Of a stretch of 60,000 nt of DNA, positions 15,889-60,000 are shown piece by piece. The notes below the pieces were generated by a model. That model made no database searches. It worked only from the letters and a program-made list of their open reading frames with translations, and was not told the DNA's origin. The translations under genes and the position numbers were made by a program. The stretch lies in the NCBI RefSeq assembly GCF_002571385.2, contig NW_019218016.1, positions 417,285 through 477,284 on the forward strand, in the 5' to 3' direction. The number at the start of each line of letters is the position of its first letter. Positions within the stretch are counted from its first letter, which is position 1. The DNA comes from Stylophora pistillata. Lineage: Eukaryota.

Positions 15889-25054
<9,166 letters not shown>

Positions 25055-26264: not shown

Positions 26265-29200
26265 CTAAACAATTCCTTGTTCAAGCATGGATTGAGCGAC
26301 CTTAATGAAGCCGCCGATATTTGCTCCCTTTACGTAATCGATGTAGCTGCCATCTTTGGACGTGCCATACTGGACACAAGTGTTGTGTATACTTTCCATG
26401 ATGTCATGCAGGCGCTCGTCCACGCCTTCTCGTGTCCAGGCGCTGCGCAGACTGTTCTGAGACATCTCAAGCCCAGATACTGCCACGCCTCCAGCATTGG
26501 ATGCTTTACCTGGCCCGAAGAGGATTTTATTTCTGCGAAATTCGTCAATCGCTTCAGGATCGGATGGCATGTTAGCGCCTTCTGCAACAGCATAACAGCC
26601 ATTGTTGATCAGTATTTCCGCGTCTTCTTTGCTAATTTCGTTCTGGGTCGCACAAGGTAAAGCCACGTCGCACTTCACGAACCACGGTCGTTTTCCTTCG
26701 AAGAATTCGGCGTCAGGGTACTTTTCCACGTACTCGCTTATTCTGCCACGTTTGACATTTTTGAGCCATTTCACATATTCGATCTTCTCTTGGTTTAAAC
26801 CACTGTGGTCGTACACCGTGCCTTGTGAGTCGGACAAGGTAACCACCTTACCACCTAACTGCACCACTTTTTCTGACGCAAACTGCGCCACGTTGCCTGA
26901 TCCCGAAACCGTAACAATTTTTCCCCTAAAGGTCTCGCCCCGTGTGTTGAGCATCTCTGCGGTGAAGTATACAAGACCGTAGCCGGTAGCTTCAGGTCGG
27001 AGCAGACTTCCACCGAAGCTGAAAGACTTCCCCGTTAAAACCCCAGTGAACTCGTTACGTATTTTTTTGTACTGGCCAAACAGGTAACCGATTTCTCTTG
27101 CTCCCACGCCAATGTCCCCAGCTGGGACATCCGTATTCGGGCCGATGTGCCTCTGGAGCTCCGACATGAAAGACTGGCAGAAATTCATAACCTCGTTGTC
27201 GGTTTTACCCTTGGGATCAAAATCAGATCCCCCTTTTCCACCTCCCAGGGGTAACGTTGTAAGGCTATTCTTAAACACTTGCTCAAAGCCAAGAAACTTA
27301 AGAATTCCTAAGTTGACGCTGGGATGAAAGCGCAGGCCACCTTTGTAGGGGCCAATGGCTGAATTGAATTCTACACGAAAGCCCCTGTTGACGTGGACCT
27401 CTCCACAGTCATCTCTCCATGGGACCCTAAAGATAACGACCCTTTCTGGCTCCACAATGCGCTCTAATATGTTACTATCAAGATAAACAGGGTGTAGCTG
27501 AAGGTAGTCCCACAGAGAACCTATCACTTCATTTACAGCTTGATGAAATTCGTGCTCCCCGGGGTTTTTCTTGACGACATGGTTCATAAAATCATCAACA
27601 CCCTTGAACCTCATGTTTCCATCCTACAGACAGAAAAAGATATGATTTTGTTTTGACAAAAGACTTGGTTGCGGAAGACTAAACTATGCTAGGTATCAAA
27701 GTCCATAGCTGCAGACTTGGTTGCGGAAGACTAAATTATGCTAGGTATCAAAGTCTATAGCTCCAGGGATATCAAGACTATCGCACAGCACTGCAGAATT
27801 GCGTGAGTTAAAAGTGCTTCGAATTAGCTATCATGAAAATGTTTCATATCTACCGTTGTACAAGGGTTTCCGAGGTCTGCAGTAAATTGTCTGAAGGTTG
27901 AATGCAGGATGTCTCGATGAATTCTTGAAAAAACTCTTAAAACAAATATTCTCCTTATAGGATAAGACATTCAAAGCATTTTCTTGCAAGCCAAAGCGTA
28001 CTGTGGGAGTGATTATGAGTGACGTCATAAAATAGATATTCTTTAGCGCGCAACGACCGGAGCAGAAGAGGAGGTTGGTAATGATTGATTAAGATGCAAA
28101 AGTCTATCCAGTCAACTGTCTTGCTGACAGACACTCTCGCAAGTGGACAGCTCTGCTCACTTTTCAATCTCTCGCTTTCCCTCCTAGTCAAACTCTGTAT
28201 TTACAGATTCCCGTAGGTGGACACTCTCTCGTAGGTGGACGTGCACAAAAAGTGCAAATTGTTCGTCGGTCACGCAACCAAGACAGTCACGCAAACCTTG
28301 TAGGCACGCAGGGGCACAGCGCTGATAAATGGGATTAATGCTTATATCAAATAATAGCTATAAATCATTTCTCCTGTGATTGGTCATCCCAAAATAAGGC
28401 TCCTTCCTGGATCGGAATAGATTCACTTTCGTTTTTGCAGAGTTCGTACCAGGAAAAGGGATAAAAATTACTGTGTGCCTATCTGAAATAAAAATCAGTC
28501 ACTGTTTTGTCCACTTTTCGTCGTCCATAGTCTAATTTGAAGTACTCAGTTCGCTACTAATAGTATACGAGAATGGTTTTACATTTGTGTACGAACTCTC
28601 GGTTTTGGAGTCGTTTTTCCAGCTCGAAAATCACAGGATCCTTGGCTTTTTGTCACAAATATGTGATAGAATTTTCACTCGTCAAAACAAATCTGAAATC
28701 GATAGAACCCTCTCTAGCCCTCAGGACAATTCACCGCTGTGGGTATGTGCATACACAGAGCTGTTTTGGCCAACAGATGGCCTGAAATTAAACCTGTTCA
28801 TATTTTCAGTTGACTCCCTTTTCAAATCATCTATAAACTTTCACTTCCCTGGATTCGAATGAAACGTAATCCTGCTGCCGAGAAGGAAGACTCGAAGCAT
28901 TCAAAATAATTCAAATGTCACACGAAACTTCTCTAGCTCCGTGGACAGGAAATGTTTTGCTCTCAATTCGCGAACAGCAAGTGATCACAAGTTATTTTTC
29001 CTTGTCAATTGACTTGGAGAGGGATAAGAGAAAGCCAGCTGCATTAAAAGAAATTAATAAAGGCAAGGCACATCAACTGGAGCGTTCAAATCTCTCTGCT
29101 GATATGTTTGTTTTTCGGCCTTTTAATTATGGTTTCCTTTCAGGTTCACCTTAGGTTTCTCGTATTTTACGCCTGAACAATATCTCTTACGATTTCCTTG

Positions 29201-32747: not shown

Positions 32748-35381
<2,634 letters not shown>

Positions 35382-36251: not shown

Positions 36252-39200
36252 TTATCCTCATCCTCCCTGAAAAAGTGTAAGATATAGATGAGTGGAAGAA
36301 AAAAATATTGTCATTTGCACATATTTTAACATGAACTAATCCCTTGTTAAACTATTTGTGGGTATCAAGTTAGATTGCAGAACTTATAACCTTGAGTAAC
36401 TTTTCAAGATGTGCAATCTAGTACAACCCTACTCTAACAGATAATTTGACCTTTTTTTTTGTTCTTACCAAGCTCAGCTTTTGCAGCTTCCAAATACTAC
36501 CTGCTAAGTATAGTGACTAATACCTGAATAGCAAACTGTTGTTGGCTGCATTTTAAAGACATCGACCTTGAATACCTGATACATACCTTGTTTAGATCCA
36601 CACCAATGTCCCCAAATTTTGTAATCTTTCCACCAAATTTCTCTGATTTTCTTGCTCTCTTTAAGTAGAGACAAAAAATTAAGACCTGCAATGCTTATAC
36701 AACATGCAGATGTTAAAAAAAAAAGGTTAAACTTCTTCAGTCTGAACTCACCGACTCCCTCATTTCTCTGTCTTTTAAATCCTTTCTGTCAGCCTGGATC
36801 TGTATACAGGTAAAACATGAGCAAAGTTTTAAACACGTACCCTATGTGAAACCCCAGTTCTATGCTCAACGATAAGAGAAATTTCCTCCTCAATATAAAT
36901 AAGAACTTTTTCTACCTTTGCTTTGATTCTTGCTTTTTCCTGGTCCTCAAATTTTTTCTTTTCTAAAACTTTCCTTCTTTCCTCTTGTAATTGTCTCTCT
37001 CTCTCTCTCTCTCTGTAAGCTGCTTTTGTTGAATAAAAATAAATACCACAAGCTTTGAGGGTTGGCATAACATTTATGACTAAGAACAAAATAATATGGC
37101 TGCACTCAAACTGCAAAGCTACCTTCGCTACATGCATGCTCCTCTAGAAGCTTAGCTATGAAAGCCATGGCATTCAAAAACTATTTCCATGATCTCATCC
37201 AATGACAAAAATTTTATCATTAAATTGATGAAAATGTCAAGTAAAAGGGAAACTTGCTTCTTGTCTGACAGAACCATAGTGCAGGCCATTGAAATTAAAG
37301 AGTAGAATTTTGCTTTGTAGCCTGAGAATTCTGCAAAATCTGATCTCCAGCAAAGAACGCATTAATTTCTGTCAATTTGGTAACCATATACATCGAGCAT
37401 TGTTGAAAAAGAACACCGTACTGTAATACTCTGAAAAAGAGGTTCATAACTCACAGGTTCAGATTTAGAGGTTACTCCTGAACTGGATCTTGAAGGAATA
37501 GTGCTGAATGAGAAAAATTAAATTAAAACACAACCTGTACAGTTTGCGTGGAGGAAAGCTTACTAATGTTAAAACGAGGGGCTTGATAATTTTAAATGCT
37601 CAAAGAGAAGGGGTACAATCTTGTGACAGAAAATTCTAATTTAAATTATGGCTAGAGAGTAAGTGTTTGTATATGTAACAACAAACTAACACACAAAGAA
37701 GCTTACTGCAATTTCTTCATTAATATTTGTTTAACAAGTTGAATATCCTCGTCTGATGGAAGCACAACGTAGTCATCATCCTTAATACAAATTCAGACAG
37801 TTCTGGTTAGTAACAGAAGAATAAAGAACTTTATTTTGTATGGCACTCCACTTAGCTAAAAGCTACTTTACAGGAAGCCCACAAATAAACATATAAAATT
37901 GCAAAACAAAAGAAAGATAAAATTTAGCTAACACTCTAAAAATTTTGAAATCTTAAAATATCTGAAAAGTGAAAGTGAAAGTGAATGATTCGATACCTTA
38001 ATAGCAGCATATCTAAGTAATCTAATTATTTATGTATCAGTACATGTGTAATTTTAAAAAGCTACGTAACTGCAATAATAACAATTTCAAAATACTACAT
38101 AACGAATACTTCTTAAAACTTCCCTTGTGCCGGCTACGGTGCGAAAGGAATCTGGTAGCGCATTCCATGTCTTTGCAGCGAAGTACCATAAAGACCTAAG
38201 ACCATGCTTGGTACTTCTTACTTTGGGCAATGAGAGCATGTTTGTGTCCCTTAAGTTATATTTTGTGTCCTTTACTTTAAGTAGGTTTACAAAGGGGGTC
38301 AGTGCCTGCTCCTAGAGGCAACTGTTTATTGTGATTAACATGTCCTGGATACAAAATTTCAAATCCGAGCCTCAATTCAGTTTTTTGAAATTTGACTCTG
38401 TGATATTGAATAGGCCATTTTACAGTTGTGTACTTAGTTGCCAAGCCTTTGATTCAGAGTGAGGCTAAAGATGACCTTGTTGCGATAGAGACCTGTATCT
38501 AGTTAGCATGATAACAAAGTGATTTACATTTGAAAGGCAGCAAGGTTTGTATCATAACTAACAAGGTCATCTCTAGCCTCACTCCCAGTTCAAAGGCTTG
38601 GCAACCAAGCACACAACTGTAAAATGGACTATTACCATATAAACTACACAGTACCTCCTGCCATCCCCAACTGAAAAGAAACTCCTGAGCTTCTGATAGC
38701 TGCCAAACTTTTGAAGAAAATGATTTGTTTTGTTTTTTGACCTTTCGGTATTTTTCGTCGGTTGGAGATTTAACTATGTTACTGGGGTTGAAAAAAAAAA
38801 AGACACAATCAAAGATGCGAAGATAATCATGTAATATCATATCAGATGATCGGTAAAACTAAATAAATCAATTAGCAAATGAAAATAACACTCAAATCCT
38901 TGAAAAATAAAGTTACTTATGGCACAACCTCCCAATACGATCCAAACAGCCCCATTCCAGAGCACTTCTCCTTATTTTTTGCTTGCCTAATATAAAATTG
39001 AAAGCATCTACTCATAGCGTAGCTTTCCCCACCAGCTATCAAACAACCTGGTTGAAGACCAGCATCAAATCTAATACAGAAAAATCATTATAGCTTTACT
39101 TTGCGAGTGTTAATAGTGTTTCTATCGCTTGTCGTGCAGTTTCACGATCATGTTTCTTACAAAGCGACTCCAGTGATGATATCAAGGCTTGTTCTCTTTC

Positions 39201-42968: not shown

Positions 42969-43545
42969 NNNNNNNNNNNNNNNNNNNNNNNNNNNNNNNN
43001 NNNNNNNNNNNNNNNNNNNNNNNNNNNNNNNNNNNNNNNNNNNNNNNNNNNNNNNNNNNNNNNNNNNNNNNNNNNNNNNNNNNNNNNNNNNNNNNNNNNN
43101 NNNNNNNNNNNNNNNNNNNNNNNNNNNNNNNNNNNNNNNNNNNNNNNNNNNNNNNNNNNNNNNNNNNNNNNNNNNNNNNNNNNNNNNNNNNNNNNNNNNN
43201 NNNNNNNNNNNNNNNNNNNNNNNNNNNNNNNNNNNNNNNNNNNNNNNNNNNNNNNNNNNNNNNNNNNNNNNNNNNNNNNNNNNNNNNNNNNNNNNNNNNN
43301 NNNNNNNNNNNNNNNNNNNNNNNNNNNNNNNNNNNNNNNNNNNNNNNNNNNNNNNNNNNNNNNNNNNNNNNNNNNNNNNNNNNNNNNNNNNNNNNNNNNN
43401 NNNNNNNNNNNNNNNNNNNNNNNNNNNNNNNNNNNNNNNNNNNNNNNNNNNNNNNNNNNNNNNNNNNNNNNNNNNNNNNNNNNNNNNNNNNNNNNNNNNN
43501 NNNNNNNNNNNNNNNNNNNNNNNNNNNNNNNNNNNNNNNNNNNNN
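42969..43545. other. Assembly gap (N run); other gaps at 46931-47109 and single Ns at 12752 and 16989
   Basis: Runs of n in the sequence. Confidence 1.
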
Positions 43546-44959: not shown

Positions 44960-46930
44960 TTATTTACTTGAAATTAAAGAAGTAAGATATATATTAAGAA
45001 CCAAAATGTTTCCTTTGGGAGCATCTTTTACATGAAATCTTCCTTTGCATTTGGGGCACTTTGCTCGCAGCAAATTTCCAGTAAAATCCTTGACCGGTGA
45101 ATCCTTCCGGCAACTGGGACACGTCACGGTGTTATCATCTCGCTGAAGACTCGGCAAAGTTTCCATTAGCCATTTGGCACGTTTGGACCCAAGTTCCTGG
45201 AAAGAGTTTTTTTCCTCTTTGTTTAGGTCGTCTACTTCCCAGTAAACATCAATAAATTTGAATCCAAGGACTTCTGCGTTCTGTACTTGGAAAAAGCCGT
45301 AGTCTCCCCAGTCGTGTCCCCAGGAATTCAGCAGTCGCAAATATTCGCTGTTGAAACTGGTTAGAACTACTGCATGGCCAAACCTTCTTGGGATATTTGG
45401 AAGACGGGCTGACATATCGATCTCTTTCTTTGTCAAAACACCTTTTCCATTAGTTTCGAAAAACTCTTTAAACTTTCCCCACTCATCGTGGGTAAGCTTA
45501 AATGTAGCAACAACTGGTCGGCTTGAAGCGACCGCTTCCATGGCACCGCAGAGGTCAACTTGCTTGTAACGTAAACGGTACTTTTTGCACATTGCCATTA
45601 ACACTTTGTTGATACTGGTCGCTTCTTTTCCAAACTCACCGATCATTTCATCTTTCAATTCTTTGAAAGTTGGAATACCGCCTTCGCGACCATGAATTCT
45701 GGTCATGGCCAAATGAAGCACTGTAGCAGATGCATGTGCATAGCAGGTGTGTCCTTCTTGCTTTTCTTGTGCTTCGTAGTCACTCACGGACTGGTTTATG
45801 TAGACATCGAGGTCGACGTCTGCAAGCAAATCAGATAACGCCTCTTGAGAACAGACGACTTCTCGAGCCAGCTGGCAAGCCTCTCGTAGATGGTCGGGAT
45901 GATTGACGTGCAGGAACAAGCATGTTTCGTTGTTCGTGGTCTCAATAGACCATTCGCGTTTGACAAACATGGAGCGTGGTATCGACTGCGTGGGCAATGT
46001 TGAGCTCAGTGAGAAAAGGAACTTAGCTGCCAGTTCCCAGTCATCTCTCTTCTCGCTGTACAATCGTCTAGGATCAATCCTTGTGGATGTAGTAACAAAG
46101 CAGCTCACCACGGTCACACCGGCGTTGTTTAATCTTCTGACGGCTCTCTCTATTCTTGTCCAATCATCCGCTTTTCCATCTGCAGGCTTCCCGTCTGACA
46201 AGACAAACAGCAGCTTTTTGTGACTTGAAAATTTAAACGCGTTTTTCTCAAAACATTCTGTCGCCCTGGTAATTGCTTCGTACATGGGCGTTCCACCGTA
46301 AATGTAGGGCTCGATGCTTCGTAATAATTCTTGGCTCCTTTCTTTAGAGAGTTCTTCTTCATCGATGTATCCATGTAAGATATCTGAAGCTTCTTTCACA
46401 TTGAATATGCGAGGTGTAAACTCTCTCTGTCTTACTCGGTTGGTTTCATCATTTTTTACTAACTCGGGCTCGGCTTTTCTTTGCACTTCTCTAACGTCTT
46501 CTTTCGTAGCCTGTCTGATGGATGACCCCGCTGATGAATAAATACTTTCGCTTGCTCTGTAACTTGTGTAAAGAGCAACAGGCATTGTCACCAACGCAAA
46601 TGGGCTGATCGCTCCAGCGCCAAATAACAGGACTCCTGGCAAGCCCCAGGCTGCGGGAGGGACTTTAGGAAAGTCTCTGCATTCTGGTGGGAGACACTCG
46701 TGAACGAACTTTTTAAGGAAATCCTTGTCAGATTTAGCTTTTTCTAGAAACAAGCGAGCCATGAAATGTGTCAATGCACTTTTGAGGACTTCCACACTTG
46801 CCCATTTGCGGATATTTTGTGCGCCGGCTGTCTCCAGTATTTGGAAAATCTCTTCTATCTGATCATTTGTGGCAGACTGAAGACCCGTCAAGATATCAAA
46901 TACTTCCCCACCAGCTTTAGCTCCAAAGGC
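44960..46930 (-). CDS. vWA + papain-like cysteine peptidase + Zn-ribbon protein, copy 1 (open frame; N-terminus falls in the gap)
   Basis: GGTP and FVLSDG (vWA/MIDAS); QEGHTCYAHA, GHAVVL and LLNSWG (Gln/Cys/His/Asn); CPSC...CPKC. No introns in the visible CDS. Confidence 0.85.
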   Translation of the reverse strand, partial: AFGAKAGGEVFDILTGLQSATNDQIEEIFQILETAGAQNIRKWASVEVLKSALTHFMARLFLEKAKSDKDFLKKFVHECLPPECRDFPKVPPAAWGLPGVLLFGAGAISPFALVTMPVALYTSYRASESIYSSAGSSIRQATKEDVREVQRKAEPELVKNDETNRVRQREFTPRIFNVKEASDILHGYIDEEELSKERSQELLRSIEPYIYGGTPMYEAITRATECFEKNAFKFSSHKKLLFVLSDGKPADGKADDWTRIERAVRRLNNAGVTVVSCFVTTSTRIDPRRLYSEKRDDWELAAKFLFSLSSTLPTQSIPRSMFVKREWSIETTNNETCLFLHVNHPDHLREACQLAREVVCSQEALSDLLADVDLDVYINQSVSDYEAQEKQEGHTCYAHASATVLHLAMTRIHGREGGIPTFKELKDEMIGEFGKEATSINKVLMAMCKKYRLRYKQVDLCGAMEAVASSRPVVATFKLTHDEWGKFKEFFETNGKGVLTKKEIDMSARLPNIPRRFGHAVVLTSFNSEYLRLLNSWGHDWGDYGFFQVQNAEVLGFKFIDVYWEVDDLNKEEKNSFQELGSKRAKWLMETLPSLQRDDNTVTCPSCRKDSPVKDFTGNLLRAKCPKCKGRFHVKDAPKGNILVLNIYLTSLISSK

Positions 46931-47419
46931 NNNNNNNNNNNNNNNNNNNNNNNNNNNNNNNNNNNNNNNNNNNNNNNNNNNNNNNNNNNNNNNNNNNNNN
47001 NNNNNNNNNNNNNNNNNNNNNNNNNNNNNNNNNNNNNNNNNNNNNNNNNNNNNNNNNNNNNNNNNNNNNNNNNNNNNNNNNNNNNNNNNNNNNNNNNNNN
47101 NNNNNNNNNGAAACTTAAAAAAAAAGGGCTCTGAGTTGTACTGAAAACAAAAAAAGTCAAGATATATAAAAAGAGAGTTTGTTTGGCTGCTTCTGCAGTA
47201 AAGAGTAGTAAAATTATTAACTTGTAATTTTTATTGCCAGACCGACTTGGATTCAGTTGTTTTTTAGTTGTAAAATGATTACTGTGCAATCTGGGTTCAC
47301 TATCGCAAGAGTTCAGACTGTTAAAATTTGACCGGCCAAAAACGGGTAGTGTCCGAGCAAAAGCATGTTTGACCGGACAACGTGACCGGCGACTGCCCGT
47401 TAGTTATTTGCAGCCTTGG

Positions 47420-48830
47420 GTTAGATTAGGGGCAGCCAGAGGCTGATGTGAACCTACCGATAAAAAATATTCAGTATCGGTTTCGTGCCATATTGCGGAT
47501 TTTAATCTTTAAACTTTATGTTCTGATGTGCGTCGAGGTTCGTTTTCAGTTGCTATGAAGAGAAACCCTCGTAAACAAGGACCATCGCCTTACAATGCTA
47601 ATAATAAGCGACGATAAGACGCTTTTGAAAACACTGGATTATGGCTCGTGTTGGCGAACAAAGCGTGGTTTGGATTGCAGCCTCAAAATTTGACAAACTT
47701 TGTATAAGGAAATTTGAAGACAGCCTGAGGGGAGCGACAGCGTTATTCCTTTTTGTTGGATAGCAACTGTCTATGTGGATCTCTTCGTGACTTTCGGAAG
47801 CTTTCGAGTAGTCTCGCCCAGTGAGACCGAGTACACCAAGATTTTCGACAGTTTTCTCTAATGACTTTTTCATTACTGTTCTTTTACAACGCGAGTTTTG
47901 ATTAGAATAATCGATACTGTTCCGTTACACACCACATTTGGAGTGAAGCAATTTCGAATTCAGTAAGAGCGTACCAATTTGAACTTCGGTTTCGCCTGAC
48001 TTTTGTTTGTTACAGCTCTGCTGAATACTCCATCGTGTTTAAATAAAGTGTTCAGTTCAGTTGAGTTCAGTTCGGAAATTAATAGTTAGGCTAGCATAGC
48101 ATTTTAGAGCTTACTTTAGAGTTCAAAGATCGTTTCAGTGACGAAAAGTGCAGAAGGAAAAACAAGATGGCTGCTGGAGACGAAGTTGAATGTGGCTCCG
48201 TGGCGAACTAGTCAGTCGGAATAAGAAACTTTTAAGCCCACCTCCTTTTAACTTGACTAGTCAGATGTACGTCAATCCGCATGCGTAGCCCCCTAAGAAG
48301 CATATTTTCTCAGACAGTCTTTAACGAAATGAATTTCTTTCCTGATTTTTACTCGAATGCAGTCAAAATCTCGTCAGATTGGAATAAGACGGGGAATATA
48401 AAATTTTTTAGGAACTCTTTGGGGGATTTAAACTCGTACTTGATACAAAAGTTGCCAAGAAACTAGCGTTCATAGACTGTTACATAACAACTAGACAAGT
48501 GGAGCGGTTGAAGATGAAACCCTTCGCACAAATTATTTTGTGTTTACTAAAGTTGATTGTTTTAGGAACGAAGTGGCCCGCGGGGCTTAAACGATGTGTG
48601 ATTCGCGTCGTCAGTATGAAAATTGGTATGGAAACTTTAATTCAGGCTTAATTTTAGAAACCTATCTTTACAGTCAATTAGATTTCTTTTAGTATAACCA
48701 GTTATTGAAGTTTAACAACGCTCAAAGAAAAACCAGACTAGTAACATTCATGCTCGAATAGTTGTGCTAGTGGCGCTTATGTTAATGGCTAATAACGTGA
48801 GCTAAGGTTCACCTCACCTTTGGATGTTTT
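47420..48830. repeat. Segmental duplication: the upstream region of copy 1 matches about 53850-55040; 49050-50440 also matches about 58850-59860
   Basis: Long shared blocks such as aaacactggattatggctcgtg, aggaactctttgggggatttaaactc and cccttt cggctgag...tctcgg.tagaacgcgaca. Confidence 0.85.
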
Positions 48831-51432
48831 TCACGAATAAAAAACCCAAGAAATAAGTCACGAATAAAAAACCCAGGACATAACGTTTTTGTTTTTTACG
48901 GTCAATAATATTCTTTGTATTACAACATACTTCATCCTTTTTCTAAATAAGCTGGTTCTTAGAATTTGTGAATGAAAAGGCTTTATCGCCTTTTCCGGGA
49001 ATGTCATAGGATTACAAATTTAGCGTTTTACTTGGAAAGCCTAATAAATTCTGGCTCACCGTCTTCTAATACTATATAGCAGAATTTGTGTCTGCTTAGT
49101 AAATGATTATAAGGGACAATAGATCAAAATGTTTCTCATTTTTAGGCCAATGGTATTCATTGTATAACAACCATAGTCTGCGTTGAATCGTGTGGATTTA
49201 TAGTAGACGTCATGCTGGTTTGTCCTTGTTTTCAATAAGCTGGATTCTTAGAATTTATTGTTTAAAATGCTCTTCGTTTGTTTGTTTGTTTTTCCAAATT
49301 AAACGTCTTTTCGAAGGTATAGCTGCTGTAGATTTTGAGGGGTCGTTGCTTTAAATGCATGTAGAGTTCTGGAGAAAAAATCCACTTATCGTTCGCTGAA
49401 GATCACTCCTCTGCGTTTCAAAGTGGAGGGTTTTCTCAGTTAAATGAGATAAAGGACGTCGGGTATCTTAGAAAGTGTAATTAATTGACAAGTCACTCCG
49501 TTCGCATAAATGAACTACTTGACCCAGATTACTTCTATCAGCTCTCTTCGAAAGACACCAATTTTAAGGATGTCGATTGAATCATTTTTACGTGGGATCG
49601 TGTTAAACCAAAGAGTAAAAGATTCAAATATCATTAAAGATCGTGATAGTACTCTATTGAATCATCATAATTTCCCGTCCTGCAGCCGTCACTATCACTT
49701 TCGAAATTCGATAGTGAAGTTCATTAGCCAAAAAATCCTCAGAATTTCTTGTTTGCTGGTTGTGCCTTTCCGACCGTTGAAGTTTTAACTGGCACAATTC
49801 CTTTTACCGTTAGTAAATGTACCTGACCATCATATGGTGATGATTTTCGATTCTGCAATTCACTTGGCTTGCGCTACGTAGAGTTGATGAACAACCTCTT
49901 CGTAGCTATGTTTTTACACCATTTTGATGTATACATGTATCCTATTAATCCATTCGAACAACATTTTATGATCCCTTTCGGCTGAGAGATCTGAGTTGCG
50001 CTGGTCGGTTAAAGATTTTTCGCTTTTAGGGCCTTCACTAGTCAGTAATATATTAATACGGAAGTGCACCAAAGCGTATTCGATTCCCCTGGTTCGCTGT
50101 ATCTCGGCTAGAACGCGACACAATATCTACAGAAAAACATAGCGGTTTTTAGTTTCAGGAAGTAAACTATTTGTTAGTGAAACAATTGAAACATACCTTG
50201 AAGTTCGTGTGGATCGCTACAGAGTCGTTAATTTCCAGCTGATGAAAACGAATAACGACTGCGTGGATGCGGCGTTAAAAGGCTGCAGGAGACAGAATAA
50301 GGACTCAAACTTTCTCTAGTAGAATTCTCCTCTTTCTTCTTGTAAGATAAACTTAGCTCTGCAAACGACTCAGTCTGATTAAGAAACTTAAGCCCAACAC
50401 CTTTAAATCTTGACCGCAATCGACTCGTCAGAAACTAGTCAACACTTATCAAGCGGAGTCCGCATGCGCAGGACAAGTAAACAAAAACATTCCTGCTCGA
50501 GTAGGCATTGTGCTACAATGGCGTTTATGAGCTAAGGTTCCCCTTTGGATAGTTTCATTATTTTTCTGTCCAAAAAAAAAAAAACCGAACAAATCAGTAA
50601 CTATGGTCACGAAAAACAAACGTGGACGTTTGAAAGGCAATTAGCCTTTTTTTCAATTAAACTTGTTAATCCGGTTTAGACTGACTTTCTTGGAATCCGA
50701 CTCTGTCACCTGCTTCCGTAGTTTCGCTGAAATCTGAAGTATTCAGTTTTAAGTAGCTTTAGTACACAAAACTAAACCGGCCTTGTTTCTAGAGTATACA
50801 AGAGCAGAAGTGTAGCCTATAGTTTTACCTAGAGCGTAGTTATATACTTTGTGTGATGAAAAAAGGGAACAACAACAAAAGGAAAGTTTTAAATGTATTT
50901 TTTGAATGGTGAATTTTCGAGAAGAGAATCATCGAGAAAACTGACTTCTGTCTTACGGATCCAAGTTATCTTCCTCTCTCGCAAGAACTGGTGCAATTAA
51001 AATTCGACCCGATCGTAACAAATTTTTTGCTGTTAATTACGAGATGTGCTAATTATTTGTTCGAGTGTCATTAAGTCTCTCACTCTCCAAAAATCAACCT
51101 CATTTACTTTTTATTTTATCTAGTATTCTTAGTCTCTGAGAAGTTTTTAAACAAATATTAAAAGAGAGTATACGTGTAATTAACTACTGCGAAATACGAA
51201 AGTCTTGGGCCCGATCCCTCGGGGGGTTCTCGAAATGTTGTGGTTCTACTTTTGTGATAAAACTAATGACATCTTTCTTCTAGGATGACACTTGTCGATA
51301 ATCTGAATTCTCAAATGATTTTGTTTCTTTGCCTTACAATCCATAATTCTGCCCTGGAGGAGATCGTCTACTCCTTGCTCAATGAGGGCTAAATATTCTT
51401 GACTTAGCGTGAAGTTCATGGTTAAAATGAAC

Positions 51433-53517
51433 TTAAATGCTTAAAGAAGTAAGGTATATATTGAGAGTCAAAATGTTCCCTTTGGGGGCATCTTTTAGGT
51501 CAAATTCTTCATCGCATCTAGGGCACTTTGCTCGCAGCAAATTTCCAGTAAAATCCTTGACCGGTGAATCCAGCCGGCATCTGGGACATGTCACGGAGTA
51601 ATCATCTCGCTGAAGACTTGGCAAAGTTTCCCTTAACCATGTGGCACGCTCGGATCCAAGTTTCTTGAAAGAGTTTTTTTCTCTTTCGTCCAGGTTGTCT
51701 ATTTCCCAGTAAACATCATAGAACTTAAATCCAAGGACCTCTGCGTTCTGCGCTTTGAAAAAGCCGTTGTCTGCCCAGTCGGGTCCCTTGGAGTCCAACA
51801 GTCGCAAATATTTGCAGTTGAAACTGGTTAAAACTACTGCATGGCCAAACCTTTTTGGGATATTTGGAGGACGGGCTGATATATCGATCTCTTTCTTCGT
51901 CAAAATACCGTTTCTGTTAGTTTGGAAGAACTCTTTAAACCTACCCCACTCATCCAAGGTAAGCTTAAATGTTGCAAGAACTGGTCGGCTTGAAGCGACT
52001 GCTTCCATGGCACCCCCGAGGTCAACTTCCTTGTAACGCAAACGGTACCTCTTGCACATTTCTTCCAGAACTGTTCCGATACTGGTCGCTTTTATTCCAA
52101 AACGGCTGATCATTTTAGTTTTCAAGTCGTCAAAAGTTGGAATACCACCTTCGCGACCATGAATTCTCGTCATGGCCAAATGAAGCACTGTAGCAGATGC
52201 ATGTGCATAGCAGGTCTGCCCTTCTTGCTTTTCTTGTGCTTCGTAGTCACTCACTGATTGGTTTATGTAGACATCGAGGTGGACGGTTGCAAGTAAATCG
52301 GATAAGGCTTCGTGAGAACTGACGACATCTCGAGCCAGGTCGCAAGCCTCTCGCAGGTGGTCGGGATGATTGACTTGCAAGAACAAACGTGTTTCATTGT
52401 TGGTAACCTCAATGGACCAGTCACGTTTAACAAACATGGTGCGTGGTATTGACTGCGTGGCCAATTTGGAGCTCAGTGAGAACATGAACTTTGCACATTC
52501 GTCCCATTTTTTTTTCTTTTCGCTGTACAGTTGTTTGGGTTCAATCTCTTGGGATGTAATGTAGCAGCCCACGATGGTCACACCTGCACCAGCCATTGTT
52601 GAGATGGCGGAGGGTATTCTGTCACTACTGACACTGTAGCCATCTGTGGGCTCTCCATCTGACAGGATGAACAACAGCTTTTTGTGTTCAGAATAGTCAG
52701 GAACATTATCCTTAAAGAGTTCCTTCGCCTCCCTAATTGCTTGATAGAAAGGTGTCCCACCGTAAATCAAGGGCTCTACGTTTTTCAATAATTCCTGACT
52801 CCTCTCCTTAGAGAGTTCTTCTTCTTTATCGATGTATCCATGTAATATATTGGAAGCTTCCTTCACTTTGAAAATGCGAGGTTTGCAATGGCTTTGTCTT
52901 GCTTTGTTAGTTTAATCATTTTTGATTAAAAAGGGTTCGGCCTTTTTTAGTACTTCCTTGATGTCTTCTTTTGTTGCTTCTCTAATGGTTGCCCCTACCG
53001 ATGCATAAACTGTTTCGCTTGCTGATAAGAGAGGGTTAACAGCCTGTCCAAATTGGCTGACCAACCCTGGTCCTTCGTGGAATTTGGTGAAGTCTTTGAA
53101 TTCTGGTGGTAGACACTCTTGGACAAATTTGTGAAGGAAATCCTTGTCAGATTCAGCCTTTTCTAGAAACAAGTGAGCCATGTAATGTATTAATGCACTT
53201 TTGACTACTTCTTTTCTTGCCCATTTGCGGATGTACCATGCGCCGGCTGTCTCGAGTATTTGGAAAATCTCTTCTATCTGATCATTTGTGGCAGACTGAA
53301 GACCCGTCAAGATATCAAATACTTCCCCACCAGCTTTAGCTCCAAAGGCTAAAGCAAATACATGGTTATCAGAGGGAACGTCGTGTTCGATCAGGTTGTC
53401 AACAACTTTAAATATCGAACGAGCCCATGGTCCTCCATCTTCATCGATACCGCTTCCCGCGCTATGATGCATGGAGTCGGAGACGTCAAGAAGGATTCCA
53501 ATCAGCGCCTTGGCCAT
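51433..53517 (-). pseudogene. vWA-peptidase copy 2 with one in-frame nonsense codon
   Basis: Starts ILLDVSDSM. TAA at 52912-52914 stands where copy 1 has GAA (KND*TNK vs KNDETNR), and both ORFs share a frame. The catalytic NSWG has changed to DSKG. Confidence 0.8.
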
Positions 53518-55454
53518 GCTCCCTCGATCTGCAATTATAAAAGTATGAATTTTATGCTGAAAGTTGAAAAGAGGGTGATAAATTAACTAAATTACCAATT
53601 GCCTTAATTTCTACACAAGTTTTTAACACTTTGTTACGACGTTTTAAGTCCTCAATATATACAAAATATATATAGATGAACACTTTTTATAGATACAGCT
53701 CACGCTGTTTCGGAACAAGTCTGATTCTTAGAATCCGTGTAGCGCTTAGGCATCCGTTTCCGCGAATATGACAATCTGTAATTAAGCCTATTCTTTTCGT
53801 CAGGTGTAGCAACCGAAACCTTTTGCCGAGTATTATATTTCAGTTTTGGCAAGCCAAATTTGGGAGATAAAAAATTTCATATCGGCTTTATGCTTTGTTG
53901 CGTATTATAATCTATTAAATTGTATGGTTCTGAAGTACTTCTAGGTTTGTTTTCAGTTGCTGTGAGGAGAAGCTCTCGTCAACAGAGACAATGCAAAGAT
54001 TAAGCGACGATAAGGCGCTTGTGAAAACACTGGATTATGGCTCGTGCTGGCGATCCAAGTGTTATTTGGATCGCAACCTCAAAATTTGACAAATTTTATA
54101 TATTTTTTCTGATGACCTTTTAATTAGTGATCTTTTACAACACTAGCTTTGCAAAGAATAATCGATACTGTTTCGTCGAATACCACATTTCGAGTAAAAC
54201 AATTTCGTGTTCAGTAACAACGAACCAATTTCGGTTTCACCTGGCTTTTGTTTTTTTGAAGTAGGAAATTAAGAGTTAGGCCAGCTTAACAATTTAAAGC
54301 TTACCTTAGAGTTTAAAGATCGTTTCAGTGAGGTAAAATGCGGATGAAAAAAGAAAGACTGCGTAGATTCGGTGTTGGGGGCTGCTGGAGACGAAGCTGA
54401 ATATGGCTCTGCGGCAAACTACTCAGTCGAAATAAGAAACTTATGAGCCCACCTCCTTTTAACTTGACGACAATCGACCTGTCAGATACAAGTCAATCCA
54501 CACGCGCTGGTCCCTTATAAGCATATTTTTTCGGACAGTCCTTAACTCTTTCGAAATGAATTTATTTTCTGATTTTTATTTGGATGCAGTCAAAATCTCG
54601 CCAGATTGAATTGAGACGGGGAATAAAAAATTTGTTAGGAACTCTTTGGGGGATTTAAACTCATACTTGATATAAAAGTTGCCAAGAAAATAGCGTTCAT
54701 AGACTGTTACATAACAAGAAGACGAGTGGAACGGTTGGAGATGAAGTCCTTCGCATAAATTATTTTGTGTTTACTAAAGTTCATTTTCTTGGAAAGAAGT
54801 GCCACCTGCGGGGCTTGAACGATGTGTGATTCGCGTCATCACTGTCAAAATTATTTTGCAAACTATATTTCAGGCTTTGTTTGAAAACCTAGCTCTACAG
54901 TCAGACTTCTAGTTATTGAAGGTTAACAAGCTCAAAGAAAAACCAGAGTAAAAACCTTCATGCTCGAGTAGGCGTTGTGCAAATGGCGCTTATGTTAATG
55001 GCTAGTAACGTCAGTTAAGGTTCACCTTTGGATATTTTCACCATTCTTCAATCAAAAACAAAACGAGACTATTCAGTGACTAGGGTCACGAATAACAAAA
55101 ACAGAAACGGTAACTTTTTCATTAAACTTTTTCGTTCTGTTTAGATGGATATTCTAGGAATCTGACTTTGCCACCTGCAGCTGGAATTTCGCGGAATTGT
55201 AACTAAGTTCTCCTTCCGCATGAACCGGTGCAATTAAAATTTCGCCGAGATTGTCGAAAAAAATTAGCAATTTGTTCATTACAAAGCCAAAATGAGGTGG
55301 TTCTGATGCTTCAACAAGAAACGAAAACCGGCCCTGGAATATGTTCTGGTATTATTTCGTCTGTTGTTACTCTCGTTTTCCTGATTGAGAAGATCATGTT
55401 TCAAACACGTCTGGTTAGAGCCCTTCTCTTTTATAATGATGCTTCAGCATAGAG

Positions 55455-55600
55455 TCTCTGTGGGTCAGCGGTAGAGCATCGGAGCGCGGAGTCTCAAGGT
55501 CTGAGGTTGGATTCCTCATAGGGACTCAGAATTTTTTTCTTTGTCCCACGCTCGTGATAAGCCTAAAAAAGCTTTTCTGCGCTTCATCTATGTTACCTAC
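55455..55600 (+). mobile_element. tRNA-derived SINE
   Basis: A-box-like tgggtcagcggtagagc and B-box-like ggttggattcc, followed by a non-tRNA body (gggactcagaattttttctttgtcccacgctcgtga). Confidence 0.75.
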
Positions 55601-56586
55601 AGCTATCTCCCTTTTGAGAGTGTTTCGTAATGTAATGGGGGAAGGCGCAGCCAGTTTGCTAGTACATTTTTTGTTTTATGAAGCTTTTGTCACCGTTGGC
55701 AAAACTAAATATCTCAGCTTAGGATTAGGATCAGTAGAGAATTTTATTGTCGCTGTTGTGTTAGGGGCTTGAACATGTCCTACTTCACTCATGGTAAAGA
55801 TAACAACGAAGAATCCTTGTACGATTTGTTTGCCGCGGCTAATCACAGTGGGGCAGTCAGCTTTGGTCACTACACCGCATTCGGTCGGCTGGCAGAGGCG
55901 GACCATCCTACACTCTTTTTGACCCTTTCGTAAGCTACAAGCAAATCAAATTCATCCATATTTTGTGTTGGCACCTACTTAAATACATGACGTAATATGT
56001 CTCTGGAATTTACAGAGAAGCCGCTGCTCAGGCTAAGCAGCTATTATATGAATGCTGAGAGCTGGGTAAGGTATTCTCTGGAATACACTCTTTCACTCTA
56101 ACTTAAAATTGTGACTACATCCTGTGGAAGATATTCAAGCGAACTTTTTTAGTGACTGAACTTGCGCAGTAGAATCTGGCCCACATTATAACGAAATAAG
56201 CATTGATGACGTACAGGAAGTTTCAATTAAACCTAAAAGGAACATTTACGCCTAAATATCAATAGCGATTTTTTTATGCTCCTTCACTTATGTTCTCAAG
56301 CTATTTTCTTCTGTGTAGTGCTCTACCCTTTTGTTTGTCTCTTGTTGGCTATTTATCGGTTCAAATCTTAAATTGTTTCTGAAATATATCAAAAAGTCCA
56401 ACTACAAGCGTACGTGATTATCCCATTCTATTAGCCTAAGCTCGATTTAAACCCTGAAAACAAATAGCACTTCTTAATCAACTAAGATTTCAAGGTCTTT
56501 TTCTTCTCTCGGAACCTATGTCTATGTTATCATGCTAAGTTTTTCTCCTCCATGGTAAAGGAAAGGTAAATGTCTCTTTCACAAAC

Positions 56587-58647
56587 TTATTTGCTTAAAG
56601 AGGTGAGATAAATATTGAGAGCCAAAATGTTCCCTCTGTTGGCATCTTTTGTAGAAAATAAAAGGCCACATTTGGGGCTTTTTGCACGTATCAAAGTTCC
56701 AGTGAATGCCTTGACTGGCGACTCCGTTTTACATCCTGGGCATTTGTAGGTAGCCTTTTGAAGACTCTGCAAGCGTTCCAATAAATCTCTGGCAACGGCG
56801 GATCCGTGGGTCTTGTAACGGGCTTTCTCACTTGGGGTCAAGTCGTCTTCTGTCCAGTACACATCAATGAATTCTAATCCAAGAAGGTCTGCGTTCTGCA
56901 CTCTAAAGAATCCTTTGTACGCCCATTTCGGTCCCCAGGAATTCAAAAGTCGCAGGGATTTGCTGTCGAAGCTGGTTAACACAACAGCATGGCCACTGGT
57001 TCTGGTGTTGGGAGCACGGGCTGTTATATCGGTGTCCTTCTTTGTCAAAATACGGTCTTCGTCGTCATCTTTTCTGAAGAACGTTTGAAATTTAACCCAC
57101 TCATCTTCTGTGAGTCGAAATCTTGCCACCACTGGTCGACTTGAAGTGATTGGTTTCATGGCACCTTTAAGGTCAACTTTCTTGCAATGCATACGGTACT
57201 TTGGACACATTTGACTCAGCACTTCCAAAGTGTTGGCACCATGACTTCCAAAGTGGCTGATAAATTCATCTCTCAATTTGTAGAAATCTGGATATCCGCC
57301 TTCGCGACCAAGAATGCGTTTCATGGACAGATGAAACACTGTAGCAGATGCATTCGCATAGCAAGTACCCCCAACTTACCCATCTTTTGCCTGATACCGG
57401 TCGAGCCCTTGATTTATGAGGACATCGAGATCGATGGTTGCAAGCAAGTCAGATAACGCATCTTGACAGCAAACCACATTTCGAGCCACCTCGCAAGCCT
57501 CTCGCAAGTGATCTGGATGATTGAGCTGCAGGAACAAACGTGTTTCGTTATTGGTGACCTCGATGGACCAACCACGTTTAACAAACATGGTGCGTGGTAT
57601 CAGCTGCGATTTCAGTGTTGTGCTAAGTGAGAAGAGGAATTTTGCACCCAGGTCCCATTCGTCCCGTCTCTCCTGGCTGTACAATCGTTTGGGCTCAATC
57701 GTCGTGGACTCAGTGACAAAGCAGCCCACCACGGTCACAGCTGCTTCTGTCAATCCTGAGACAGCTTCGTCTTTTTTCGCCGAGTCATTGATATCTCCGT
57801 CTCCGGGCTCTCCGTCTGACAGGACAAATAGCAGCTTTTCATGGCTTGAAAACGTACGGGTTCTCATAAGTTCTGTGGCCCTTTCAACTGATTCTTACAA
57901 AGGCGTTCCACCGTAAATGTAGGGCTCGACGCTCCGCAGTAATTCTCTACTCCTTTCCTTCGAGAGTTCTTCTTCATCGAAACAACCATGTAAAATATCT
58001 GAGGCTTCGTGAACACTGATAATGGAATCTTTGCCTACACTTTTCTTCATCAAATGTGGTGCAGCCTTGTCAATTACATCTTTGACCTCTTCAGTTGTAG
58101 CTCTTTTAAATGTCGTCACCGCTGAGGTAGCCACTGTTTCCATGAGACCTAGAAGTTGATTTTGCGGAAACCATTCGCGGCAAGCTGGTGGTAGACACTC
58201 TTCTACGAATTTACTTGCAAACGACTGGTCAGACTCACATTTTTTTAGTAACAAGCCAGCCGTGTAATCTGGTACTACATTTCTGACGACTTCCACGTCT
58301 GCCCATTTGCGGATGTTACGTGCACCGGCGTTCTCTAATATTTGGAAAATTTTGTTTAAGTGGCCGAGTGTGACAGGCTCGTCGTTTTGCTCAAAAGCTC
58401 GTTTATGAAGGTGAATACGTTGAAGGGTTCCCAGGATGTCGAATATTTTCTCACCCTCTTCGGCCCCGAAGCCAACGGCGAAAACGTGGTTGTCAGTGGC
58501 AACATCGTGTTTGATAAGGTTGTCAATAACTTCAAAGATCGAACGAGCCCACGGCTCTCCGTCTTCAGACTCTTCATCAATACCACTTCCAATGCTACGT
58601 TTCATGGATCCAGAGACATCAAGTAGGATTCCTGTCAATGACGGCAT
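56587..58647 (-). pseudogene. vWA-peptidase copy 3 (more divergent) with two in-frame nonsense codons
   Basis: Starts MPSLTGILLDVSGSM. TAA at 57895-57897 (GGTPL*, Tyr in paralogs) and at 57376-57378 (DG*VGGTCYANA, replacing the oxyanion Gln). The three ORF pieces are in one frame. Confidence 0.8.
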
Positions 58648-60000
58648 GTTTCCTTTGCCAGCAGTTACAATTATAAGAATGGGTTTTGACATACTAGTTT
58701 ACTTGAATACCAGTGACCTAAACCTCCATATTTATCACGTGACTATTGACCAACCTCGCAGAGGTTTAGCGTGAGATTGGTAGCTTAAGAATACTCAGAA
58801 ACGGACTTGGAATATTTTTATCCTTAGTTGTATCTATATAAGCGACTCAACGAATGCTGGTGTTCTCCCTCTGTCATATATTATGTATAAGGATCTGTGT
58901 CTGCTTAGTAATTGATTATAAAGGGCAACAGATAATATTTTCTTTTTGGTTTTTTTTTCATGTCAACAACATTCATTATACAGAAACCACAGTCTGTGCA
59001 GACATAGTTAGTAGAGGGGGGTGGTGCAGAACAATGCGGATGTAAAGAGGACTTACTTAGAATTTATGAATCGAAACGCTTAATCGCGTTATTCCGGGAA
59101 TGTCCTTGAAATGCAAATTGAACATCTTTCTTGGAAGGCCCCAGAAGGTGTATGTTACGAGTGGCCGCTACTTTAACTTCGGGTAGATAATATTCTGCAT
59201 ACCAGCCTTTCGTTCACTAAAAATTACTTCTCTGCTTGTGAAAGTGGATGACTCTCTCGGTTCAGATAATGGAGGTCGAATAGCTTAGAAAATGTAAGCA
59301 TTTGATATCATTTTCTGTGTCCACCGGAATTAATGTGTTAGCCCGAATTACTAGTATGAGAACTCTTCCAATGACGTTTTTACATCGTTTTGATGTATGC
59401 TGTATTAATTCGCTGCATAGAACTTCCTTTTCTTATCCCTTTCGGCTGAGAAATCTGTGTTGCGCTGTTTAAGAACCGCTCTTAAGACAAGAAGATGTAA
59501 GAAGTTAAAGATTCTTTCGCTTTTAGGTTCTACATTTGAATTTAACTTTTATCAGTACGGAAGTGTACCAAAGCGTATTCTATTTTCCCTAAGTTCTCTG
59601 TATCTCGGTTAGAACGCGACATGCAGTATCTAAAGGGAAGCAAGCGGTATTTTTTTTCCAATTAGGATATTAATAGTCGGTGTAACAGTCATAAACATAC
59701 CTATAAGTTCGTGGGAATCGTTACAGAATCGTTAATTTCCTGCCGGAGGGGCTGCTGGAGACGGAAGAAGCACTCGAACACTTACTCGAGATCTGCTCAA
59801 ACCAAACTTTGGTAACGCCAACTCCTTTTAACCTGAGCACAATGGGCCTGTCAGATACACGTTGACCAATCACCCGATTCGCCTTTAATCTACCGCATAT
59901 AAGCGAATCTAATTATACCAAATTACCGCATACATGCTGATAAAGTAGGACCTATTTACCTACCGAGATTAGATTACCGAGAACAAAACAAAGGCCAAAA

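Follow-up and report, generated by a model that had tools for sequence, protein, structure and literature searches.

A largely pseudogenised coral array of genes joining a vWA domain, a papain-like peptidase and a zinc ribbon, and its relatives in animals, fungi and bacteria

Three neighbouring genes in a 60,000-nucleotide stretch of the genome of the coral Stylophora pistillata (NCBI RefSeq assembly GCF_002571385.2, contig NW_019218016.1, positions 417,285 to 477,284 of the forward strand; hereafter the window, numbered from its first letter) raise the question of what kind of protein they encode and whether any of them can still make it. An initial annotation, drawn from the letters of the window, had described a tandem array of intronless genes for proteins with a vWA domain split by a long insert, a papain-like peptidase and a zinc ribbon, and had suggested a cytosolic ligand-gated protease family, possibly of innate immunity. 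We find that the family is real, widespread and functionally unstudied, and that it had earlier been only a label in a table; this array of it is largely pseudogenised. From sequence comparison, we give a probability of about 0.55 to the reading that the family serves innate immunity or biological conflict as a papain-like cysteine protease of the cytosol gated by its vWA domain, and that the tandem array has gone through gene birth and death, leaving one live gene at most.

State and origin of the three copies

The array consists, as annotated, of three paralogs; they lie on the minus strand and have pairwise nucleotide identities of 69–81% (Table 1). A tblastn search with five relatives found no fourth coding copy in the window, and an Rfam scan of the window gave no match. 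The paralogs share the motif order GGTP, LSDG, Q-x4-C, GHAVV, L[N/D]S, CxxC and NILxLNIYLTSL, the last being the C-terminal ending that had been described. To speak of three genes is nevertheless an overstatement, as copy 2 contains one in-frame stop codon and copy 3 contains two. We rejected hidden introns as the source of these stops, as the copies align codon for codon across them; sequencing errors are possible. Copy 1 is the sole member able to be intact, and at most one of the three copies is intact. All three pairs show dN/dS ratios of 0.35–0.38; the copies have therefore evolved largely under purifying selection and were probably broken only recently.

The visible part of copy 1 is an open frame matching Pfam Peptidase_C1 (E 3.8e-5, 24.3 bits, cut-off 20.7) and, just under the cut-off, VWA (E 1.3e-4); its catalytic residues are C396, H519 and N535 in protein numbering. 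The DxSxS motif of the metal-ion-dependent adhesion site (MIDAS) had been placed at the N-terminus of all copies, ahead of the insert. This holds for copies 2 and 3, which have a complete MIDAS (all five residues), but not visibly for copy 1, where only the Thr and the second Asp can be seen and the expected site of DxSxS falls inside a gap of 179 N. Copy 2 spans the equivalent stretch in 168 nt, and copies 1 and 2 are identical over 95 nt from the gap edge, so that the motif is probably present within the gap; the exact match may also explain why the gap arose.

The annotated catalytic set, QxxxxC, H and NSWG, is complete in copy 1 only. Copy 2 reads DSKG, which the alignment of relatives indicates to be a family variant rather than decay, because the third catalytic position is Asp in 85 of the 119 closest relatives (Asn in 33); in copy 3, the second stop falls in the oxyanion-Gln column. 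The pair of CxxC motifs is present, with a spacer of 17 rather than about 16 residues, and the second of them has become SPKC in copy 3. Copy 1 alone has a hydrophobic segment in the insert (maximum over Kyte–Doolittle 19-mers 1.89 versus 1.3 in copies 2 and 3, from which the segment is absent). A further in-frame ATG lies upstream of copy 3, at 58692.

The lack of a signal peptide and of a papain-type propeptide was borne out. In copy 2, DxSxS stands at residue 11 and the first vWA strand begins at the very N-terminus, leaving no room for either, and Pfam scans of the array frames and of 68 diverse family members gave no propeptide family; no signal-peptide predictor was run.

We then asked how the array arose, given that a retroposed or horizontal origin had been proposed. 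No coding intron interrupts the visible parts of the copies, but this is not unique in the window, where a glutamate dehydrogenase open reading frame (ORF) is also unbroken. Copies 1 and 2 have about 1.2 kb of upstream DNA in common, at 75–79% identity. Thus, whole genes were duplicated in tandem, and retroposition is not supported. Candidate splice donors for an intron in the 5′ untranslated region occur at the same place in both (near 48114 in copy 1 and near 54304 in copy 2), with a candidate acceptor in copy 2 at 53529–53530, directly before the ATG; as judged from splice consensus only, the ancestral gene probably had one coding exon and an intron in its 5′ untranslated region. No transposase or reverse-transcriptase match was found in 10 longer frames scanned with Pfam between and beside the copies. 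Separately, two segments at 49910–50239 and 59376–59743 are about 70% identical, each with a candidate splice donor (near 50196 and near 59700). The former sits between copies 1 and 2 and is an orphan duplicate of the upstream region of copy 3; no coding match follows it.

The family, its fusions and its bacterial relatives

In the family, a vWA domain carrying a variable insert is followed by a papain-like (C1A-type) peptidase and then a four-Cys zinc ribbon; the MIDAS, the Cys/His/Asn(Asp) residues and the zinc ligands are conserved in corals, other marine animals, a fish and filamentous ascomycetes. Of the 119 closest relatives, 118 keep Cys, 119 His, 118 Asn or Asp, 119 the four zinc Cys and 117 DxSxS; 111 new matches, mostly from ascomycetes, keep Cys (108), His (111) and Asn (109). 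The spacing Q-x4-C is found in 116 of the 119, and the papain-type Q-x5-C in 97 of the 111. DxSxS lies at residue 8–25 in 51 of the 57 members of a 68-row alignment in which it was found. At a Pfam E of 0.01, the 68 diverse members match VWA in 51 cases and Peptidase_C1 in 37, and USP, OTU, UCH, Josephin and MINDY are absent from their matches. Searched against the PDB, the family profile matches vWA domains, in their C-terminal half only, and papain-family enzymes, the His-to-Asn spacing of 16 being that of papain in the hidden Markov model alignment. About 35 residues separate the end of the vWA domain and its conserved extension from the oxyanion Gln. The zinc ribbon probably serves to bind a substrate or a partner. 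Eight proteins that cluster in the tree (P0228, P0229, P0230, P0231, P0233, P0244, P0251 and P0261) end near profile position 541–545, just before the catalytic His; they either form a truncated subfamily or share an intron that gene callers overlooked.

Papain-family enzymes of MEROPS C1A (papain, cathepsins, Plasmodium SERA) share with the array family the order and motifs Q..C, HAV and NSWG.xWG..G[FY]. Eukaryotic members of C1A typically have a signal peptide and an inhibitory propeptide. The array family differs in having neither, in lacking the CGSC motif, in the Q-x4-C of corals and in the fused vWA and zinc ribbon.

A profile search returned 1,341 clusters (50% identity) at E ≤ 0.001, 885 at 1e-10 and 303 at 1e-30; weaker matches may share one domain only. 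Among the 120 matches listed for the array, Pocillopora damicornis and Montipora capricornis supply the nearest relatives with names (62–63% identity). Named relatives over the full length occur in Saccostrea, Owenia, Holothuria, Anneissia, Hydractinia, Dendronephthya, Acropora, Montipora and the fish Coilia. Ascomycete relatives are many, for instance in the filamentous genera Aspergillus, Fusarium and Trichoderma, and a 322-member cluster with VWA and Peptidase_C1 in the ESM Atlas has recorded members that are all eukaryotic and mostly Ascomycota. Copy 1 had no match in phages, and the fungal-type protein P0245 had none in plasmids. In a quick tree search on the vWA core (67 rows), all named animal sequences fell within one 20-row clade and eight fungal rows in another (SH-aLRT 100 each). 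As the named animal sequences all lie in one clade, a recent transfer into this coral is unsupported, but a horizontal origin of the vWA module deep in time may hold. The root is unreliable (the outgroup rows are 11–14% filled and five bacterial rows lack the N-terminal block), and therefore we claim no direction of transfer.

A scan of 185,579 prokaryote genomes in GTDB with two exact patterns gave 11 loci, seven of which hold this vWA subfamily. In five of the 11, a TIR domain directly follows the conserved vWA extension, in the slot that the peptidase takes in eukaryotes, and there is no insert; the hosts are a Lysobacterales metagenome-assembled genome (MAG), a Holophagales MAG, Pseudanabaena, Rhodopirellula baltica (L005) and Bradyrhizobium forestalis (L006). 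On a profile made from eukaryote-type sequences only, the bacterial vWA domains score 116–148 bits, versus 16–17 for three generic vWA domains (L009–L011, which we rejected as relatives) and at most 37 for any vWA in the PDB; hhalign between bacterial and eukaryote-type vWA gives a probability of 99.7 (E 8e-27). A Glu occupies the expected catalytic position of TIR in all five. What is new here is the fusion of this vWA subfamily to TIR in five bacterial genomes. Searched against plasmids, these proteins returned 37 records, none covering 80%, and the 25 records listed match the TIR end. A three-domain gene in a Chlamydiae MAG (L001, 671–2902) was read as eukaryotic contamination, on a 5.8-kb contig with 31% GC and a single ORF of at least 120 aa.

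As for neighbours, L007 carries a TIR-vWA gene and a stand-alone vWA gene adjoining trypsin-TIR and Trypco1 genes, pYEATS lies near L003, and L002 and L006 have further TIR genes. The TIR-rich neighbourhoods at L002 (7977–15807), L006 (7590–10721) and L007 (5016–9925), with extra TIR genes, a KGGVGR-type AAA ATPase, Trypco1 and trypsin-TIR, are candidates for a defence system that has yet to be described. The ORFs scanned at the bacterial loci, 35 of 119, included no MoxR, no third component (VMAP or iSTAND) and no PP2C.

In eukaryotes, the module is at times joined to further domains. Scanning 25 longer relatives revealed two Death domains in P0143 (E 8e-17) and WD40 repeats in P0255, and a scan of 17 revealed GT4-conflict domains in P0443 and P0448, the latter with TRADD-N as well; P0485 has a weak TIR match under the cut-off (E 0.007). 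P0448 is LOC107356762 and aligns to the window copies by tblastn at 42–45% identity over about 670–720 columns (E 1e-151 or better).

Conservation is lowest in the insert (19% identity versus 30–39% elsewhere). DxSxS and the MIDAS Thr are a median of 247 residues apart (range 181–577; n = 373 of 488 proteins), versus 106–112 in bacterial vWA-TIR. A 58-residue insert unit was found in 442 of the 488 proteins, with two to three copies in 13. Long uncharged, hydrophobic and often Gly-rich runs occur in 18 of 115 non-redundant insert segments, that of copy 1 included, these segments being drawn from the 281 of 488 proteins with both anchors. Distances between the 119 relatives computed from the vWA half and from the peptidase half are discordant (Spearman 0.31 over 7,021 pairs, versus 0.97–0.98 for five random column splits). 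P0075, for example, is 89% identical to P0096 in its first half and 92% to P0003 in its second. Assembly chimeras may add to the discordance, but this combination of halves recurs in 23 proteins. These patterns argue that the two halves recombine among close relatives.

The initial annotation had not recognised the architecture as a characterised family. Full-text literature searches, with most subscription journals outside their coverage, found no description of the family, and NCBIfam has no family for these proteins, but the architecture is already in a supplement. The source data of Figures 4 and 6 of Kaur et al. 2021 (eLife, PMC8195603) label two Acropora loci 'vWA+SERAprotease+ZnR', which corresponds to the same module, the one to which the window copies are homologous over the full length in LOC107356762; there it is attached to GT4 and TRADD-N, whereas the window genes are without both. 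The main text has 0 matches for 'SERA' and 'ZnR'; in the passages, section 13 and supplement rows considered here, neither the stand-alone family nor its fungal branch nor bacterial vWA-TIR comes up. The paper argues that such TRADD-N and GT4 proteins have a role in the immunity of sessile marine animals. The part of PMC12881547 considered here does not cover the family.

Two known systems resemble the family most nearly. In the parts of Kaur et al. 2020 (PMC7159879) cited here, MoxR–vWA ternary conflict systems (VMAP, iSTAND) comprise vWA proteins with swappable C-terminal effectors. The likeness lies in swappable effectors, TIR and peptidases among them, placed behind a vWA and its conserved C-terminal extension, and in Trypco1 and trypsin neighbours; by contrast, neither MoxR nor a third component was found in the window frames scanned or in the bacterial-locus ORFs. 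Two supplement files of that paper have 0 matches for vWA+TIR, TIR+vWA, papain and SERAprotease. Within the defence library, the vWA comes closest to TerY of the TerY-P triad (E 1e-6), which gives a weak PADLOC match to the C-terminal vWA half in three of four eukaryote-type and six of eight bacterial proteins (E 2e-8 to 9e-4). The TerY module, as described in part of PMC11090510, ends in a zinc ribbon, as does that of the array family, but the latter has no PP2C or adjacent kinase gene among the ORFs scanned, a large insert and a fused effector. The family would work like a vWA-plus-effector conflict protein but belongs to neither the MoxR–vWA nor the TerY-P systems.

A gated protease of conflict and its rivals

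The bacterial exchange of the peptidase for TIR, the fusions to Death, TRADD-N, GT4 and WD40 domains and the recombination between halves all point towards immunity or conflict, and they lend partial support to the earlier suggestion of a cytosolic sensor joined to a protease. The mechanism that we favour would run as follows. The peptidase would be active but restrained at rest by the vWA part, since it has no propeptide; this is the most secure of the steps. Just as an acidic ligand residue completes the MIDAS metal site of integrin I-domains, an acidic residue of a foreign or damage-exposed protein would complete the metal site here, with the variable insert setting specificity. A shift of the last vWA helices, or oligomerisation, would then turn on the domain behind, which is the protease here and TIR in bacteria. 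Least securely, the target of cleavage would be an invader protein, a host cell-death executioner or the protease itself.

Several observations weigh against the vWA-gated protease. The peptidase match is weak and confined to the His/Asn half, the Cys region aligning to papain at an insignificant score; the coral Q-x4-C is one residue shorter than in papain; and most close relatives have lost the papain Trp and replaced Asn with Asp (DSRG in 76 of 119). In the array itself, two of three copies are broken by in-frame stops, and the start codon and DxSxS of copy 1 are out of sight, its 5′ end being in the gap. Fusions to immune domains are rare (four clear and one weak among about 40 proteins scanned), most members standing alone, and true bacterial relatives were found in only seven of the 185,579 genomes by the exact-pattern scan. 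Finally, dN/dS exceeds 1 in no region, and some mosaics may be assembly chimeras of short contigs.

With such a protease, coral immunity, of which the effectors are little known, would gain a candidate, and there would be a case of a MIDAS domain gating a papain-fold enzyme without a propeptide.

A broader proposal, which we hold only tentatively and regard as doubtful, is that bacteria, fungi and animals have in common an unrecognised immune module, in which the MIDAS would sense infection and fire TIR in bacteria and, once the vWA had acquired a diversifying insert, a papain-like protease in eukaryotes. Reef animals and moulds would then possess a protease switch, independent of caspases, that acts in defence or cell death. 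The least supported step of the proposal is that self-cleavage might free the Gly-rich hydrophobic hairpin of the insert, of the copy 1 type, to act on membranes. Gasdermins, TIR and cGAS-like enzymes are eukaryotic immune components that have been traced to bacterial defence proteins; the present family bears the same signature, and our literature searches found no functional study of it. The small bacterial vWA-TIR form would be a cheap way to learn what the vWA senses, with an answer transferable to the coral and fungal proteases.

Among the rivals of the vWA-gated conflict protease, the one that survives best, although we consider it unlikely, is a regulatory protease of metal or stress sensing with no immune role, in which the MIDAS would read Mg, Ca, Mn or a toxic metal and trigger limited proteolysis. 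The strict conservation of the MIDAS and TerY as its best PADLOC match would fit, TerY-P being hypothesised, in part of PMC11090510, to be a metal-sensing switch; the same part of that source reports TerY-P-like modules to be antiphage. A metal sensor would leave unexplained the variable and repeatable insert, the shuffling of halves, gene birth and death, and the associations with Death, TRADD-N, GT4 and TIR.

Somewhat less probable still is an isopeptidase for ubiquitin or a ubiquitin-like protein, or a quality-control protease, with the MIDAS or the zinc ribbon binding a ubiquitin-like fold, as the MIDAS of midasin does. A cytosolic papain fold with a zinc ribbon is a common deubiquitinase layout, and a Cys-His-Asp set occurs in the 85 relatives mentioned above. 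The motifs, however, are of C1A type (GHAV, NSWG), none of the deubiquitinase families named above appeared among the Pfam matches of the 68 members at E 0.01, and bacterial relatives pair the same vWA with TIR.

We rate equally low the view that the locus is non-functional, all three copies being dead or on the way to it and the coral subfamily slowly turning into a pseudo-enzyme or scaffold. The stops, the lost zinc Cys, the unseen 5′ end of copy 1 and the loss of the papain Trp in most close relatives are as it would predict, but the frame of copy 1 is unbroken over 656 codons and retains QxxxxC, H and NSWG, the dN/dS ratio is 0.35–0.38, and Cys and His are kept almost throughout the relatives (118 and 119 of 119). 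The proposal that the genes are transposon cargo or retrocopies, for which one could cite the single coding exon and a relative joined to RNase H domains (P0137, 3,511 aa), is very improbable in view of the upstream DNA common to the copies, the lack of transposase or reverse-transcriptase matches in the 10 frames and the conservation of the architecture across animals and fungi.

Coordinates and other features of the window

The features of the array and of its surroundings are collected in Table 1.

Table 1. Coordinates of array features and of other coding matches in the window.
Feature	Position	Strand	Evidence or remark
Copy 1, visible coding part	44960–46930	-	Open over 656 codons; covers the C-terminal part of vWA and its insert, the papain-like peptidase and the zinc ribbon
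Copy 1 C-terminal motif NILxLNIYLTSL	44975–45010	-	Motif conservation; typical of animal clade
Copy 1 zinc ribbon CxxC-x17-CxxC	45047–45121	-	Motif; Pfam zinc-ribbon matches weak (E 0.08 or worse)
Copy 1 papain-like catalytic core	45239–45760	-	Gln 45758–45760, Cys 45743–45745, His 45374–45376, Asn 45326–45328 (NSWG); codon coordinates computed from motifs
Copy 1 MIDAS Thr and second Asp	46190–46297	-	Motif positions: GGTP 46286–46297, LSDG 46190–46201
Copy 1 hydrophobic segment in vWA insert	46559–46663	-	Kyte–Doolittle; 35 residues, uncharged, Gly/Ala-rich; candidate membrane hairpin
Assembly gap, 179 N	46931–47109		Expected site of copy 1 start codon and MIDAS DxSxS (content inferred)
Upstream block common to copies 1 and 2	47459–48830 (copy 2: 53866–55038)	-	Self-BLAST 75–79% identity, alignment
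Copy 2, probable pseudogene	51433–53517	-	DVSDS 53473–53487; in-frame TAA 52912–52914 (codon 202); third catalytic position Asp (DSKG)
Copy 3, pseudogene	56587–58647	-	DVSGS 58606–58620; in-frame TAA 57895–57897 and 57376–57378 (the latter in the oxyanion-Gln column); second CxxC changed to SPKC 56668–56679
AMP-binding enzyme exon(s)	4324–4590	-	Short exon-sized match
ClpB-like AAA ATPase exon(s)	19512–20729	+	Short exon-sized matches
Ribosomal protein S3 (RPS3) exon(s)	33259–34851	+	Short exon-sized matches
PUB-domain protein exon(s)	38502–38858	-	Short exon-sized match

A second assembly gap, of 577 N (42969–43545), lies 1.4 kb past the 3′ end of copy 1; if its length is correct, no complete additional copy would fit inside it. 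A short fragment at 55709–55930 (+), located between copies 2 and 3 and running opposite to them, matches Pfam UCH in the USP His-box region (E 3e-6) and is probably a remnant or an isolated exon.

Frames resembling GIY-YIG and ALKBH8_N, at 12743–13072 (+) and 23355–24074 (-), are probably retroelement remnants. The unbroken glutamate dehydrogenase frame mentioned above, at 26265–27623 (-), comprises 452 codons of an NADP-specific enzyme (NCBIfam PRK09414, 747 bits, cut-off 536) and stands among spliced genes. Its third-codon-position GC content (GC3) is 0.53 versus 0.44–0.45 in the array, and it is a bacterial-type gene, possibly acquired long ago.

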